DNA from: Oscillospiraceae bacterium
Lineage (GTDB): Bacteria; Bacillota; Clostridia; Oscillospirales; CAG-272
NCBI GenBank assembly: GCA_015065385.1
Contig: SVQK01000009.1
Coordinates: 18,021 to 82,020, forward strand
Reading direction: 5' to 3'
Length of the DNA stretch: 64,000 bases
Part shown: piece by piece, positions 3,630-58,818 of the stretch
How positions within the stretch are numbered: the stretch's first letter is position 1
Layout: each line of letters opens with the position of its first letter
Notes under the pieces: generated by a model
Database searches by the model: none
The model's input: the letters and a program-made list of their open reading frames with translations, nothing else
Told to the model about the DNA's origin: nothing
Program-made: the position numbers and the translations under genes

Positions 3630-5045
3630 TCAGCCTCCGAGACGCTCGCTCTCGACGATCCGTTTTCTGCGGATCACGTCGGAGGGATCGAGCCGCTCGT
3701 CCTCGTATTCCGCCTCTCCGCTCTGGTTGTCGTAGGGATCGAGGCGGAAGAAGGTCTTCGGCGGTTCGAGCTGACGCTGGAATTCCGTGCAGGCGATCAT
3801 CCGGTGCGGATCGAGGTTTCCGAAGTACCAGTTCCAGCCCTCCGTGTCGCCGGCCCGCTTCATGCCTCCGCCGTAGGACGGATCGCACGGGAGCCAGCCC
3901 CACGGTTCCACATAGAACTGCGCCCAGTCGTGACTGCCGATGGAGGTCGGACGGGCCGCGTTTCCGGACTGCCAGCGCGCGGGGATCCCGGCAAGACGGC
4001 ACAGGACGATGAAGAGCAGGGCCTGTACGCCGCAGTCCCCTCGGCCGTTGACAGCAGCGTACATGGGGATGTTGTCCATGAACCGGTAGTCCCGCATGTA
4101 GGAATAGCGGACGTGGGAGGTGACGTAGTCGTAGATCTTCCGCGCTCTCAGGAAGGGATTCTGCTCGTTCCCGGTCAGCTCCCCGGCGAGCATGCGGAAA
4201 TACGGCGTGAAGGAGATGTGCGGGGGCAGCTCGTCGAGATAAAGCGCCGCTTCCTTCGAATAGCCGCGTTTGGCCGCCGCCGGATCGAGATCGTGGTACA
4301 CGGCGGTGCAGACATAGCGGAAGGAGATCTCCAGCCGGTTGTCCGCGCCCGCCTTGACGGGATATTCCGCGTAAGCCGTGCGGATGGGATGGTCGGAAAC
4401 CGTCACCGGACGGTTCGCGGAGAGGAGCTCGATTCCGGACTGCTCCGGCGTGACGGCGGGGAAGGGGAGCCAAGCGCGGAAGAGCTTTCCGTCCCGGATG
4501 TGCTCCTCGTCCGGCTCGACGGATTCTTCGACGGTGAAGCGAACGGAAGCCCGCCCGTGTTCCCGCATATAGGCCATATTTTCGTGGCGCAGCTCGCTGA
4601 ACGTCTCCCGGAACGTCTCGCCGGGATGGGTCAGCTCGTAAAGATATCCCTCGCAGCAGTCGGTCAGGTTGGCGTAGGCGTCGTCCTGAAAGCGGATGCA
4701 CCCCGGGAGCGCGCCGTTTCCGATGATGTAGTCGGCGTGTCCGGAGTCGATCAGAGCGTAAAGATCCTTTTCCTCAAATCCGGGGTAGTTCTTTTGGAAC
4801 AGAGCCAGCATGCCGTCCCATGTGATGCCGTAATCGTGCGACAGCCCGTCCGCGAGGATCTTTTCCAGCTCCAGACGCTTTCTCAGAATGGGCTCGAACG
4901 CCGGATGGGTGTCGGGGGAGAGCAGGCGGTCGATCTCGGCGAGCTCTTCCTCATAGCGGCCCGCGAACCGGAGGTTTTTCAGGGAATCCGGGAGCTCCGC
5001 GGCGAGGAGGGCGAGGGACTCATAATCAAAAGGCGTGTGTTTCAT
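3630..5045 (-). CDS. Transglutaminase-like domain protein (Cys-His-Asp papain-like fold)
   Basis: 471 aa, RBS GGAGGACATTC-ATG. Core motif GDCGVQALLFIVLCRLAGIPARW, then SHDWAQFY and CDPS (Cys/His/Asp triad order of the transglutaminase core). Confidence 0.8.
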   Translation of the reverse strand: MKHTPFDYESLALLAAELPDSLKNLRFAGRYEEELAEIDRLLSPDTHPAFEPILRKRLELEKILADGLSHDYGITWDGMLALFQKNYPGFEEKDLYALIDSGHADYIIGNGALPGCIRFQDDAYANLTDCCEGYLYELTHPGETFRETFSELRHENMAYMREHGRASVRFTVEESVEPDEEHIRDGKLFRAWLPFPAVTPEQSGIELLSANRPVTVSDHPIRTAYAEYPVKAGADNRLEISFRYVCTAVYHDLDPAAAKRGYSKEAALYLDELPPHISFTPYFRMLAGELTGNEQNPFLRARKIYDYVTSHVRYSYMRDYRFMDNIPMYAAVNGRGDCGVQALLFIVLCRLAGIPARWQSGNAARPTSIGSHDWAQFYVEPWGWLPCDPSYGGGMKRAGDTEGWNWYFGNLDPHRMIACTEFQRQLEPPKTFFRLDPYDNQSGEAEYEDERLDPSDVIRRKRIVESERLGG

Positions 5046-5126
5046 GAATGTCCTCCGTAAAGTTCATACTAAGTTCATTCTAAACCATTGGAAAGGGGAG
5101 ACGCGGCTTTCTTTCGGATGAAAGCT

Positions 5127-5145
5127 CGCTCAACAAGTTGAGCCG
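5127..5145. repeat. 19-nt exact repeat, copy 1 (contains palindrome GCTCAACAAGTTGAGC)
   Basis: CGCTCAACAAGTTGAGCCG is identical to 5291-5309. The core is a 6-bp stem with a 4-nt loop. Confidence 0.9.
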
Positions 5146-5290
5146 GCAAAGAACTTTGAAAAAGGGGAAAGGAGTATGGCTGTACCAATAGAGTGAAGCT
5201 GAAGCTTTGGCACACCAACGAAGCTTCGCGCAGAGCGCGAACTTCTGAAGCCATCCAACCTTATCAGAGTTATCACACGCGATGCCCATC

Positions 5291-5309
5291 CGCTCAACAA
5301 GTTGAGCCG
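5291..5309. repeat. 19-nt exact repeat, copy 2
   Basis: CGCTCAACAAGTTGAGCCG, 164 bp downstream of copy 1, same orientation. Confidence 0.9.
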
Positions 5310-5382
5310 CACGGCGATTCGCACCCTACATGGAGCGATCAAAACCCATTTGCTACAGTTTAGAATCAAAATAGTATCGATT

Positions 5383-5431
5383 CAGAAAGAAAGACAGGGG
5401 AAGTTGCCCCGGGAATAAGGGCAGCCTCCCC
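5383..5431 (-). terminator. Rho-independent terminator of tpiA
   Basis: Minus-strand hairpin GGGGAGGCUGCCC / GGGCAACUUCCCC (5419-5431 pairs with 5397-5409; one G-U and one mismatch), followed by UGUCUUUCUUUCUG. Confidence 0.7.
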
Positions 5432-5446
5432 TGCGGAATGTCACAT

Positions 5447-6217
5447 TCAGGCCTGCGCGGCGTCCACGATCTTCGAGAATTTTTCGGGAACGAGGGACGC
5501 GCCGCCGATCAGACCGCCGTCCACGTCCACCTTGGAGAGCAGCTCGGCCGCGTTTGCGTCGTTCATGCTGCCGCCGTACTGGATGGTGAGGGCTTCGGCG
5601 ATTTCGGGGCTGTAGAGGCCGCAGACGACCTTGCGGATCAGGGCGCAGACTTCCTCCGCCTGATCGGGAGTCGCGGTGAGGCCGGTCCCGATGGCCCAGA
5701 CGGGTTCGTAGGCAATGACCACATTCTTCATCTGCTCAGCGGGAATGCCGGCCAGATCGAGCTTGGTCTGCATGGATACGATCTCTTCGGTGATGCCCGC
5801 CTGACGCTGTCCGAGGACTTCGCCGAGGCAGAGGATGACCTTCAGACCGGCCGAGAGGGCCGCGCGCGTTCTCTTGTTGACGGTTTCGTCCGTCTCGCCG
5901 AAGTACTGGCGGCGCTCGGAGTGGCCGATGATCACATATTCCGCGCCGCTCTCGAGCAGCATGTCCGCGGAGATTTCTCCGGTGAAGGCGCCCTTCGGCT
6001 CGAAATGGACGTTCTGCGCGCCGATCTTGACGTTCGTGCCCTTTGCGGCTTCAACGGCGGGGAGCAGATCCACGAACGGGACGCAGAGGACGACTTCGCA
6101 TCCGTCCTTGCCTGCGGTCAGCTCGGCGGTCCTGGCGACGGCGGTCTTCGCGGCAGAGGGGGTCATGTTCATCTTCCAGTTGCCGGCGATGATGACTTTG
6201 CGGGATTCTTTTTTCAT
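5447..6217 (-). CDS. tpiA: Triosephosphate isomerase
   Basis: 256 aa. Motifs IIAGNWKMN, IIGHSERR, AYEPVWAIGTG and QYGGS are the canonical TIM motifs. Confidence 0.97.
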   Translation of the reverse strand: MKKESRKVIIAGNWKMNMTPSAAKTAVARTAELTAGKDGCEVVLCVPFVDLLPAVEAAKGTNVKIGAQNVHFEPKGAFTGEISADMLLESGAEYVIIGHSERRQYFGETDETVNKRTRAALSAGLKVILCLGEVLGQRQAGITEEIVSMQTKLDLAGIPAEQMKNVVIAYEPVWAIGTGLTATPDQAEEVCALIRKVVCGLYSPEIAEALTIQYGGSMNDANAAELLSKVDVDGGLIGGASLVPEKFSKIVDAAQA

Positions 6218-6300: not shown

Positions 6301-7500
6301 TCAGTCCTTGTTTTCGAGGCAGGCGATGCCGGGAAGCTCGAGGCCTTCGAGGAATTCGAGGGACGCGCCGCCGCCGGTGGAGATGTGGGTCATCTTGTCG
6401 GCGAAACCGAGCTGTTCGACAGCCGCCGCGGAGTCGCCGCCGCCGATGATGGAGACCGCGCCGCTCTCAGCGACAGCCTTCGCCACGGCGCGGGTGCCGG
6501 ACGCGAAGTTCTCCCACTCGGAGACGCCCATCGGGCCGTTCCAGACCACGGTGCCTGCGCCGATGATGGTCTTGGCGAAGAGCTCCTGCGTCTTCTCGCC
6601 GATGTCCAGTCCCATCCAGCCGTCCGGGATGGAGTCGGAGTAGATGCGCATGAAGGTGGTGTCTTCCTTGTACTCGCGGCCGATCACGTTGTCCACGGGG
6701 AGGATGAAGGAAACGCCCTTCGCTCTCGCCTTGGCCATCAGGTCGCGGGCCAGATCCAGCTTGTCCTCTTCGCAGAGGGAGGTGCCGGTGGTGTTGCCGA
6801 GCGCACGGAAGAAGGTGTAGGCCATGCCGCCGCCGATGATGAGGGTATCGACCTTCTCGATGAGGTTGTTGATGACGCCGATCTTGTCGGAGACCTTCGC
6901 GCCGCCGAGGATGGCGACGAACGGACGGGCCGGATCCTCGAGGGCCTTGCCCATGATGGAGATTTCCTTCTGGATCAGATAACCGCAGACGGCGGGAAGA
7001 TACGCGGCGACTCCGGCGGTGGAGGCATGCGCTCTGTGGGCCGTGCCGAACGCGTCGTTGACGAAGATGCCGTCCTCGCCCGCGAGAGAAGCGAGAGCCT
7101 TGGCGAACTCGGGATCGTTCTTTTCCTCTTCCTTGTGGAACCGGACGTTCTCGATGAGCATCACGTCGCCGTCCTTGAGAGCGGCGGCCTTAGCCTGCGC
7201 GTCGGGACCGATGACGTCGGCGGCGAGAGGAACTTCAACGCCCAGACGCTCGGAAAGTCTCTTCGCCACGGGCGCGAGGGAGTACTTCATGTTGAATTCG
7301 CCCTTCGGTCTGCCGAGGTGGGAGCAGAGGATGACCTTCGCGCCGTGCTCGCGGAGATAGTTGATGGTCGGGAGCGCGCCGGTGATGCGGTTTTCGTCGG
7401 TGATGACGCCGTCCTTCAGCGGGACGTTGAAGTCGCAGCGGACGAGGACCTTTTTGCCGGTTACGCTGATGTCCTCTACGGATTTCTTGTTGTAAGTCAT
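6301..7500 (-). CDS. pgk: Phosphoglycerate kinase
   Basis: 399 aa. Motifs [45 protein letters not shown] and [13 protein letters not shown]. Confidence 0.97.
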
Positions 7501-16771: not shown

Positions 16772-18289
16772 TTATCCTTCCAGCTTGTCGATGAGCTTCT
16801 TGAGGGTCTTCGCCCATACCTTTTCGTTTTTCTTGAGCGTGGACGCGAACTCGTCGTTCTGGATGTTGTTGTAGAAGATGTCCATCAGGGAGCCGACGGA
16901 GTCGCCCCAGTAGAAGCAGAAGTCGGCCGTGATGCTGTCGTGGATCATGTCGATCATCTGCGCGGTGGTGGCGTCGCGGCTGTATTTGTTTTTCAGCGCG
17001 AGGTCGTAGTACGCCGGGATGACGATCTTCGAGGTCATGGAGCAGTCCGCCTCGAGCCACGTTGCGATCATGGGGATCCGGTCGGCGGGAAGGGTGGTCG
17101 GGCATCCGTAGATCGGCACGCCGTCGTACTGGTTGACCCGGTAGGTCTCCTGCTGGTCGTCGTACTTCGGCAGGGGAATGATCATGAAGTCGGACTCCAT
17201 GCTCCGGACCTTTTCGTTGCCCGCGAGCCCGATGGTGTAGGGGCAGAAGAGCAGCCGGTCCCCGGTGAACATATCCACGGCGGTCCCGTCGAAGTCGGCG
17301 TTGTCGAGCATCAGCGCGTAGTTCGTATTGTAGTAGATGTTGTGGAGCTTGTTGAAGACGTCTACGGTGTGCTCGTTGTTCAGCACGACGGAATAGTTTC
17401 CGCCGTCGTCGATTCCGGTGTAAGTAACGCCGTTTGCGAAGACCATGCCGTTCAGGGTGTGCCCTTTCTGCATGACCACGCCGAACGCGTCCGCCTTGTC
17501 CACCTCGGAGTTGCCGTTCAGATCCTGATAGACGCCCTCGCAGAGAGACGCCATCTTGTCAAGCGTCCATCCGCCCTCCAGCACCATGCCGTAGACGTCC
17601 TCGCCGGGATAGAAGTTGTTGAGGACGGTGTTGTTGACGAACATGGCGTAGATGATGGAGATGAAGTTGTGGGTGAGGTCTTCGGAGAGCCAGTAGATGT
17701 TGTCCTTGTAGTTGATGTTCTCGATGTAGAGCTGACTCCAGTACGGCGCCTGAATGTCGATCGTGTCCATGAAGCCGTTTTCGTTGAGCTTCATCACGAT
17801 CCCGGACGCGGCCAGCGCCACGTTGAACCGGGTGTGTCCCACGAAAACGTCGTAGTCGTCGCTCCCCGCGGTGACGGACTGGGTCGCGGTGGCGGAGAAA
17901 TTGCCGTAGCCCGTCTTCTCGCAGAGCCTCATTCCCGCGTTCATGCGGGAGAGAAGGGCCTCGTTCCTGCGCCAGTACGCGTCGGCGATCGTGGCGTCGA
18001 GCTGCGTGCCGCCGGACGTTCCGTCTTCGTCCAGCTCCACGGAATGGGTTTCCTCCGCGGTGAGGAAGCGGACCTCGTAGCCGTCCCAGTCCATGGTCTC
18101 GGGCAGGTTGTCGAGGTAGGGCTTTTCCGTCTCCTCCGGTTCGGCGTCCACGGCGTCCGCAGCGGAGGGAGAGGACGCGCCGCCCTGTTCTCCGGGATCG
18201 GAGCCGTTGGCGCAGGACGCGAGGGCGGAAAGGGCGAGCAGGCCGGAGAGGGCGGCACAGAGAAGTCGGGAGAGAATGGAGCTTTTCAT
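16772..18289 (-). CDS. Extracellular solute-binding lipoprotein (family-1, LplA/YtcQ-like about 500-aa type), orphan
   Basis: 505 aa. Signal peptide plus lipobox LALSALASC. RBS AGGAGGCAAC-ATG. Paralogous in length and motifs to 49510-51033. No adjacent permease or ATPase genes. Confidence 0.85.
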   Translation of the reverse strand: MKSSILSRLLCAALSGLLALSALASCANGSDPGEQGGASSPSAADAVDAEPEETEKPYLDNLPETMDWDGYEVRFLTAEETHSVELDEDGTSGGTQLDATIADAYWRRNEALLSRMNAGMRLCEKTGYGNFSATATQSVTAGSDDYDVFVGHTRFNVALAASGIVMKLNENGFMDTIDIQAPYWSQLYIENINYKDNIYWLSEDLTHNFISIIYAMFVNNTVLNNFYPGEDVYGMVLEGGWTLDKMASLCEGVYQDLNGNSEVDKADAFGVVMQKGHTLNGMVFANGVTYTGIDDGGNYSVVLNNEHTVDVFNKLHNIYYNTNYALMLDNADFDGTAVDMFTGDRLLFCPYTIGLAGNEKVRSMESDFMIIPLPKYDDQQETYRVNQYDGVPIYGCPTTLPADRIPMIATWLEADCSMTSKIVIPAYYDLALKNKYSRDATTAQMIDMIHDSITADFCFYWGDSVGSLMDIFYNNIQNDEFASTLKKNEKVWAKTLKKLIDKLEG

Positions 18290-58156: not shown

Positions 58157-58654
58157 TTATTTCGCGCTCTCGAAGCCGAGGAGCCTGTTCAGCATGTTGG
58201 TGACCTCGCCCATCGGAATGCCGGCGGTCGAGACGGCCTTTTCCAGCACCGTCATCGCGTGCGCCTCCGCGTTCAGGTCGCTGTAGATCTGGCGGTAGAA
58301 GTCCAGTACCGCGCGGTTGGTGGACTCTCTCGCCTCCACGACGGCGGCGATGGATCCGGATTTTTCGGGGGCGGAATTGTCGATCTTGGCGATGGCCTCT
58401 CCGATGTAGGCCGGTTCCGCGCTGATTTTCTCGATCTGGCCGAGGACGTATTCCACGGTCAGGGCGGGTTCGATTCTATTTTCAGACATTTCGGTGTCCT
58501 TTCTGAAATCATGATCGGGCGGCGACGCCAGACAGATTCTGTTGTCCCCGATCCAGCGCGCCCTCCCTTTTTTGACGAGTCCCCGCGCCCGTTTCTCGAA
58601 CGTGGGCTCGTATTCGTTTCCCGATTCGTCTGAGACAAGGACGGTTTTTCGCAT
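58157..58654 (-). CDS. Hypothetical protein with basic N-terminal module and helical C-terminal domain
   Basis: 165 aa from ATG 58654; the track uses GTG 58657. RBS AGAGG. Has its own promoter and terminators. The N-terminal EKRARGLVKKGRARW resembles the RRXRR-type basic motif (from memory, unverified). Confidence 0.65.
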   Translation of the reverse strand: MRKTVLVSDESGNEYEPTFEKRARGLVKKGRARWIGDNRICLASPPDHDFRKDTEMSENRIEPALTVEYVLGQIEKISAEPAYIGEAIAKIDNSAPEKSGSIAAVVEARESTNRAVLDFYRQIYSDLNAEAHAMTVLEKAVSTAGIPMGEVTNMLNRLLGFESAK

Positions 58655-58724
58655 CACGGAAACCTCTTGCTCATGATGTGTGACGCTGTTTTTGTCGATG
58701 GGTGCCGTCCCCGGTCACGAATAC

Positions 58725-58753
58725 AGTATAGCACATCCCGGACGCGTTGTCAA
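58725..58753 (-). promoter_or_regulatory. sigma-A promoter of the hypothetical gene
   Basis: Minus strand TTGACA (complement of 58748-58753), 17 nt, TG-extended TATACT (complement of 58725-58730). Confidence 0.6.
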
Positions 58754-58818
58754 GAGGGGGAATCCCGGGGAATCAAAACGGGATCTTCCCAAAATCAGGG
58801 AAAGTCCCGCATATGGAT

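Follow-up and report, generated by a model that had tools for sequence, protein, structure and literature searches.

Bacterial MITEs (miniature inverted-repeat transposable elements), reviewed in PMC3184786 and PMC2229807, such as the Correia elements of Neisseria, RUP, BOX and SPRITE of pneumococcus, bcr1 of the Bacillus cereus group and ERIC, are small, non-coding, multi-copy sequences with terminal inverted repeats (TIRs), a target duplication, an intergenic location, strong predicted folding and insertions next to gene ends. Our subject here is a low-GC island upstream of a transglutaminase-like gene in a 64,000-nt stretch of DNA from an Oscillospiraceae bacterium (hereafter the window; positions 18,021 to 82,020 of contig SVQK01000009.1, assembly GCA_015065385.1), which an initial annotation had explained as a structured leader, an independent small RNA or a MITE, with looping-repressor operators as a further option. 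We are highly confident that window positions 5067-5376 are a fixed insertion of a non-autonomous DNA transposon, namely a MITE of a 240-310 bp family, here named TACTA, which resembles the bacterial MITEs in all of the above respects. In other words, the TACTA family is a new member of a well-known kind of element.

The likeness goes further with BOX, whose interior is also modular, while several differences set the TACTA family apart. Namely, Correia and RUP duplicate TA, whereas the TACTA family duplicates the trinucleotide TNA (3 bp); it is larger than most of the listed bacterial MITEs; and, unlike theirs, its interior contains long invariant blocks and hairpins that covary between species. 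The same target and duplication are known from the IS1031 group of the IS5 insertion sequences (IS), exemplified by ISLrh of Lacticaseibacillus rhamnosus, which insert at 5'-TNA-3' with an exclusive 3-bp direct repeat (PMC12016507). However, members of that group are approximately 850-950 bp long and encode a transposase, and the inverted repeat of ISLrh, GAACCTGTCTAGTATCT, is unlike the TACTAATCTCAAGC of the TACTA family. The Tourist MITEs derived from PIF/Harbinger (PMC2213677, PMC12730594) likewise duplicate 3 bp (TNA/TWA) and belong with a transposase superfamily that is akin to IS5, but they are eukaryotic, have unrelated termini and serve as an analogy only for the likely type of transposase.

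The family is present in many copies in the window's own genome (G000; 4.3 Mb in 128 contigs, 94% complete). BLAST of the region against this genome returned 109 segments, dispersed and multi-copy, and another search with the region yielded 106 candidate places, 40 of which were scored. When 55 near-full copies, including that of the window, were aligned together with their flanks, all of them started with TACTA and ended with TAGTA, and the flanks were unrelated. A family profile built from this alignment matched G000 at 102 places, 52 of them full-length (236-312 bp) and 50 partial, and the family size in this genome is roughly 80-95 copies. As 33 of the partial copies lie at contig ends, the family is behind an appreciable part of the assembly breaks. 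A weak end-like pair at window positions 58473-58804, which was also considered, turned out to be ordinary GC-rich sequence with no element.

The flanks of these copies carry the signature of the target. Among 50 full copies with both flanks available, the adjoining 3-mers are identical in 40, their middle base is identical in 43 and a T stands before it in 49, with TGA (20), TAA (10), TCA (10) and TTA (8) as the variants of TNA; copies in relatives have the same T-N-A pattern. What is more, one locus could be seen both with and without the element in strains of one and the same species. Namely, the ribosomal protein L9 gene (rplI) lies beside the copy at C102:40614-40920, and a search with its product found the identical protein on 21 public metagenome contigs. 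The rplI-dnaB spacer is empty on two metagenome contigs (L139 and L146), where it reads CCTTC-TCA-GATAAAACG, and filled in G000 (C102) and on L138, L140 and L143, where it reads CCTTC-TCA[TACTATTC...ATTAGTA]TCA-GATAAAACG. This clean pair fixes the bounds of the element, demonstrates that exactly TCA was duplicated and proves mobility; it argues against the copies being assembly artefacts or lacking polymorphism. On another contig (L141:795-1300), a copy beside rplI is directly followed by TTA-GAAGCGAAACAGTA-TTA, the end of a sister-family element; either the two inserted in tandem, or the assembly was joined there across repeats.

Insertions can be followed between species as well. Two independent ones lie 3' of one orthologous gene, C85:33077-33351 in G000 with a TGA duplication beyond the terminator and L084:6097-6351 in a relative, where TAA is duplicated right at the stop codon. 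It follows that the family was still moving once the two species had split, and the pair suggests a limited set of tolerated or preferred sites. An old insertion is seen as well, in the form of a copy without its left end that directly follows the stop codon of one gene both in G000 (C21) and in a relative (L120).

At the window locus itself, the comparison with relatives gives the arithmetic of a single insertion. Orthologues of the transglutaminase-like protein were found in 27 of the 52 other genomes of the genus, and at the seven congeneric loci with a complete tpiA (L020-L026), tpiA lies directly upstream across a spacer of 58-97 bp that holds just a terminator hairpin and a ribosome-binding site (RBS), the element being absent from all seven. 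The window spacer (5046-5446) measures 401 bp, i.e. 88 + 313, where 313 is the 310-bp element plus a 3-bp duplication, and only 18 bp are left between the duplication and the start codon of the transglutaminase-like gene. The 401-bp spacing recurs on all five public contigs that carry an identical TpiA and a called next gene. No strain polymorphism was seen at the window site, the insertion being present on all contigs found, and it looks fixed in the sampled populations.

Several features that define a MITE are thus found here, namely a short (under about 800 bp) non-coding unit with TIRs, a target-site duplication and dispersed copies with insertion polymorphism, and the MITE option of the initial annotation is the one that held. 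Its description of the island also proved accurate, in that all the features it listed were found where it had placed them. In particular, GC content falls to 0.47-0.50 over window positions 5000-5450, with 0.59-0.66 in the flanks, and the stretch lies between the tpiA terminator and the transglutaminase-like gene. The absence of a credible open reading frame is likewise borne out: across 69 copies no frame is conserved or consistently open, and the longest open stretch switches strand and frame between copies. A hidden small gene was accordingly discarded, even though the indels of modules are multiples of three. Where the annotation needs correcting is in the bounds, which it had set at 5046-5396.

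Namely, the element occupies 5067-5376 (310 bp; plus strand, in the orientation of the family model), corresponding to the nhmmer profile match C98:23086-23397 over model positions 1-279, and is flanked by the target-site duplications TCA (5064-5066) and TCG (5377-5379), which the flanks of full copies and the empty site at the other locus identify as such; the right one has decayed by one base. All features within the element are given on the plus strand. The TIRs, TACTAAGTTCATTCTAAAC (5067-5085) on the left and GTTTAGAATCAAAATAGTA (5358-5376) on the right, pair with each other over about 19 bp, imperfectly. The 9-bp inverted repeat at 5077-5085 and 5358-5366, which had been thought capable of closing the whole element, is real and belongs to a longer 33-nt inverted pair (5066-5098 and 5345-5377, 76% complementary). 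In the family as a whole, the ends have the consensus TACTAATCTCAAGCTAAAA / TTTTTAGGCTGAGAATAGTA and form imperfect TIRs of approximately 20 bp, as is seen when the left end TACTAATCTCAAGCTAAAA is set against the reverse complement of the right end, TACTATTCTCAGCCTAAAA.

Between the ends, copies are mosaics of invariant blocks (ACGCGGC, GGCAAAGAAC, GGCACACCAA, ATCCAACCTTATCAGAGTTATCG and GCGATCAAAACCCAT), variable stretches and optional modules, the latter being two 18-nt palindromic hairpins and one 27-nt hairpin. Following the window copy from left to right, hairpin H1, GCTTTC-TTTCGGAT-GAAAGC, spans 5106-5125, and in relatives both of its arms are 1 bp shorter (GGCTTC...GAAGCC). It is followed at 5127-5145 by the optional module P1, GCTCAAC-AA-GTTGAGC, which is present in about half of the G000 copies and is the first copy of the 19-nt repeat CGCTCAACAAGTTGAGCCG; the second, the optional module P2, lies at 5291-5309, exactly repeated 164 bp away as had been noted. 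In relatives the P1 position is taken by GCTGAACAAGTTCAGC, GAGCAGCAAGCTGCTC or CAGGCATAAATGCCTG, with changes on both sides in three of the five pairs tested. Across species, this first palindrome reads GCTCAAC..GTTGAGC, GCTGAAC..GTTCAGC, GAGCAGC..GCTGCTC or CAGGCAT..ATGCCTG, always in the same place. The perfect hairpin TTCGCGC-AGA-GCGCGAA (5225-5241), also confirmed, is part of the 27-nt module at 5219-5245, which is present or missing as a block among copies and of which a variant, CGCAC...GTGCG, still pairs. The invariant core block ATCCAACCTTATCAGAGTTATC (5253-5274), which was used as a search pattern, is unchanged in G000 and in four other metagenome-assembled genomes (MAGs), and the conserved block GCGATCAAAACCCAT lies at 5335-5349. 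The window copy belongs to a minor subfamily with a variant subterminal sequence, together with the G000 copies at C32:15607, C94:47698 and C82:9059. Finally, in five mini copies of about 135 bp, the left end up to P1 is joined directly to P2 and the right end, an arrangement that is to be expected of a deletion between the two 19-nt repeats.

The placement of the copies is far from random. Genes hold 82% of all TNA sites, and the copies are almost all intergenic. Of the 49 full copies for which a gene was called on either side, 25 lie between convergent, 21 between tandem and 3 between divergent genes, against 8.6, 29.4 and 11.0, respectively, expected from intergenic TNA sites (chi-square p = 3e-9), although these counts are approximate, as the genes were called with a rough codon-usage gene caller of our own making. 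In 17 of 52 cases the duplication is the neighbour's stop codon itself, where 9.2% would be expected (p = 2e-6). Such a pattern is what selection against harmful insertions usually leaves behind, and a degree of preference for the ends of genes may add to it. In tandem contexts, 12 copies are co-oriented with the neighbouring genes and 9 are anti-oriented, without a clear strand bias, which argues against a function that needs co-transcription in one orientation.

Taken together, these findings suggest the following course of events. A transposase acting in trans, by its target most likely an IS5/IS1031-like DDE enzyme, would recognise the imperfect TIRs of approximately 20 bp and insert the element at TNA, duplicating the trinucleotide, as the empty site demonstrates for rplI-dnaB. 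The family amplified in an uncultured rumen bacterium and its closest relatives, copies being kept where they are least harmful, i.e. outside genes, rarely between divergent genes and often just past or exactly at a stop codon. At the window locus, one copy landed between the tpiA terminator and the RBS of the transglutaminase-like gene, stretching the spacer from about 88 to 401 bp, and the stems seen there, among them the two 19-nt palindromes and the 27-nt hairpin, are modules of the element itself.

The distribution of the family is narrow. Within the genus (53 genomes searched), full-length relatives with 69-79% identity occur in three genomes (G057, G058 and G013), partial matches in G048 and end-only matches in G056, and a search of another 300 genomes, drawn from 30 families of the order, turned up no family member. 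The exact core ATCCAACCTTATCAGAGTTAT occurs at at least 61 places when one genome per species is considered; among the matches listed, almost all are in rumen MAGs named "uncultured Ruminococcus sp." (RUG12770, RUG12348, RUG10688), with one place each in a rumen MAG labelled Lachnospiraceae and in a sheep-rumen Clostridia MAG. The family is restricted to the small clade that these "uncultured Ruminococcus sp." rumen MAGs form. The phage and plasmid collections gave no match. One IMG/VR contig (L149, IMGVR_UViG_3300028048_002421) ends in the invariant core of the MITE (6912-6932); it may come from a prophage, or be a piece of a related rumen bacterium that was classified wrongly.

The TACTA family is accompanied by others of similar build. 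The sister 'CATACTG' family of the same genome shares with it the TACT termini, the TNA flanks and a structured interior with optional hairpin modules, but its interior of approximately 400 bp has no obvious similarity to the TACTA core. In all, at least three further repeat families of G000 combine TACT... termini with different interiors, namely the 'CATACTG' family of about 400 bp, one with the interior CATGCGCGTTTCGATCGCTGTTTGCG, and a mini element of about 95 bp that hardly exceeds its two ends around a terminator-like hairpin; they are found at C98:89763, C125:22791, C12:87685, C2:26540 and other places, at C33:78232 and C119:14989, and at C105:184849. In a relative, the copy at L106:316-547 carries the ends TACTAAATCCCTTC... 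and ...AAAACAGTA, of types known from other G000 families, around a TACTA core.

That said, several observations weigh against this reading. No autonomous element with matching ends was found in G000 or in five related MAGs, and when G000 and the fetched loci were searched for TACT-type ends paired at a distance of 0.5-6 kb, only two pairs came up, which are separate MITEs. The ends of the only IS5-family element, GATAGTGTCTACACGA with TA-type flanks, are unrelated to those of the MITE. The counts by gene context, as mentioned above, are approximate. As for the interior, ATCCAACCTTATCAGAGTTAT and other blocks do not vary between species even though the intergenic DNA of these species cannot be aligned, and hairpins hold their position while their sequence changes, which leaves room for an additional function.

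These last two points lead to the alternative that survives best, according to which the element is mobile, as a MITE would be, and also carries a functional structured RNA, multi-copy and expressed from many loci. Such an RNA might control or help its own transposition, or be of use to the host in stabilising RNA or as a processing site. We consider this unlikely, but there is a case to be made for it. Namely, the blocks persist in spite of the divergence of neutral DNA, including in the orthologous end-truncated copy shared by C21 and L120, and the local hairpins covary. In a count over six hand-specified local helices in 26 sequences from about five genomes, 92% of the cells pair, and 8 pairs, with 40 cells, show changes on both sides; covariation scores 0.132, as compared with 0.079 +/- 0.005 in shuffles, none of 500 of which reach it, and with 0.017-0.037 for slid partners. 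One short stem after the core occurs in five or six Watson-Crick versions (ATCGC/GCGAT, ACGGC/GCCGT, ATGGC/GCCAT, ACAATC/GATTGT, ATGATC/GATCAT and ACGAC/GTCGT). Finally, at one pair of the long-range helix CGCGGC/GCACGCG, G-C has become G-U in 12 of the 26 sequences and A-C is not seen, which would fit an RNA read from the model plus strand, but this signal comes from one or a few inherited substitutions. We discarded a broader strand call from counts of G-U against A-C, since predicting the structure for each strand makes the argument circular.

Other observations speak against such an RNA. Consensus scans showed no recurring promoter or terminator inside the element, and the orientation of the copies is not clearly biased with respect to transcription of their neighbours. 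The consensus fold of the whole alignment is weak (RNAalifold, -5.5 kcal/mol, 20 pairs), although here the optional modules disturb the alignment. What is more, perfect palindromes can stay paired through template switching in replication, without selection, and copies that transpose are selected for their cis-acting DNA sites, which would conserve blocks as well. The candidate explanations of the interior are cis requirements of transposition, a role at the RNA level and self-correction of palindromes by template switching. The likeliest, in our opinion, is that the conserved blocks and hairpins are needed in cis by transposition-competent copies, be it as DNA or as a transcript. That the conserved, hairpin-rich interior is specifically a functional structured RNA, or a fold of single-stranded DNA, which the transposon requires or disseminates, strikes us as rather unlikely. 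To our knowledge, no such RNA has been described in this DDE-type transposon superfamily.

A different question is which enzyme moves the element. Genes matching PF01609, PF13359, PF13586 and PF13340 in G000 and five relatives are without TACT-type ends, and the larger DDE_Tnp_1 genes of the relatives have none nearby. A solo end at C45:6930 lies upstream of a gene resembling UDP-glucose dehydrogenase, not of a transposase gene. The one IS5-family element, at C38:2131-2976 in G000, is approximately 850 bp long, with two overlapping frames that are degenerate with stop codons, and is intact on C96 of G057 (L148, reverse, approximately 280-1150); it was rejected as the partner, neither its ends nor its flanks matching those of the MITE. 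MAGs often lose IS copies, however, so these failed searches do not establish the absence of a partner. An IS5/IS1031-like DDE enzyme is still the most likely mobiliser, since the length and target of the TNA duplication match the IS1031 group; an element of that group with matching ends was not found in G000 or the five relatives.

The competing proposal, improbable in our view, is that the MITE is of the IS630/Tc1 type and is moved by the IS630-family transposase of the genome. There is one such transposase (Pfam DDE_3, E 9e-35, DD34E spacing), embedded in a sister MITE; at C53:8208-8401, fragments of an IS630-like transposase gene are joined to the right half of a TACTA-family copy; and the MITE termini share with IS630-like ends the loose pattern TA..AATC...AAAA. 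However, the IS630-like element, which is split over the ends of contigs C122 (1 to approximately 1020, reverse) and C106 (1-558), is a separate unit of about 1.03 kb, which has ends of its own (TAGCAATCCAC / TAGAGCAATTCC), duplicates TA and is nested at a TA in the sister MITE. The copies in relatives have the same kind of ends, which led us to reject the idea that it is the parent from which a MITE arose by deletion, an idea prompted by the end and the structured region of the sister MITE that flank its transposase gene. In addition, only 6 of the terminal 11 bases match the IS630-like ends, and the MITE duplicates TNA rather than TA; for the empty rplI-dnaB site a TA model predicts CCTTCTCA-TA-TCAGAT, and CCTTCTCAGAT is observed, which rules this model out.

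Two side observations concern the IS630-like sequences themselves. The transposase gene changes frame at GAGCGTCCCCGA, and the same change is present in an 84%-identical copy (G013 C59), which suggests programmed frameshifting and not decay. In the C53 relic, two transposase gene fragments in reverse orientation abut the right half of the TACTA-family copy, which is probably the remnant of an IS630 insertion into a MITE, followed by deletions.

The remaining reading, a locus-specific leader or riboswitch for the transglutaminase-like operon or a pair of operators for a looping repressor, we find barely credible, since, for all its position directly upstream of the RBS, its strong predicted folding (better than shuffles on both strands, with z of -3.5 on the minus and -2.6 on the plus strand) and its pair of identical palindromes at a distance of 164 bp, the whole segment is missing from relatives in which the gene order is the same, the same sequence adjoins unrelated genes, in one orientation or the other, at about 90 places, the palindromes occur in some copies only, as optional modules whose sequence, though not their hairpin, differs between species, and no Rfam family matches. 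This last result comes from a check that the initial annotation had proposed, which gave no match in the whole window at the gathering score and, at E <= 10 over 4900-5600, nothing better than E = 6. The annotation had also named many dispersed copies as the outcome that would speak for a plain repeat over a regulatory RNA, and this is the outcome obtained, at the expense of its regulatory-RNA and operator proposals alike. The element is ordinary mobile DNA, not a locus-specific regulatory RNA.

The host genes on either side are both read from the minus strand. The transglutaminase-like reading frame occupies 3630-5045 (Pfam Transglut_core, E 6e-23), its start codon (5043-5045) and its RBS GGAGGAC (5050-5056) spanning 5043-5056, and tpiA occupies 5447-6217 (Pfam TIM, E 7e-93). 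The intrinsic terminator of tpiA (5395-5433, minus strand) is host sequence outside the element, and relatives have a terminator in the same position. The 58-97 bp found in those relatives leave little space for a promoter of the transglutaminase-like gene's own, and the operon may be transcribed by read-through past the tpiA terminator or from a promoter that lies within tpiA.

For the annotation of this locus, the result removes a false lead, in that there is neither a riboswitch nor an operator upstream of the transglutaminase-like operon. For rumen genomics, the family is a practical cause of MAG fragmentation, accounting for 33 contig ends in an assembly of 128 contigs, and its filled and empty sites could act as strain markers. 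For transposon biology, it is an orphan family that has a clear TNA signature without a transposase having been found, and the conservation and structure of its interior go beyond what terminal repeats by themselves call for. Should a cis-acting fold or an RNA be the cause of this conservation, it could be studied in the family as a compact system; otherwise the family simply adds to the known bacterial MITEs. Should the RNA alternative be true, an RNA encoded by the element could, for example, take part in its own mobilisation or control, a principle that a whole set of related families of rumen Clostridia would share.

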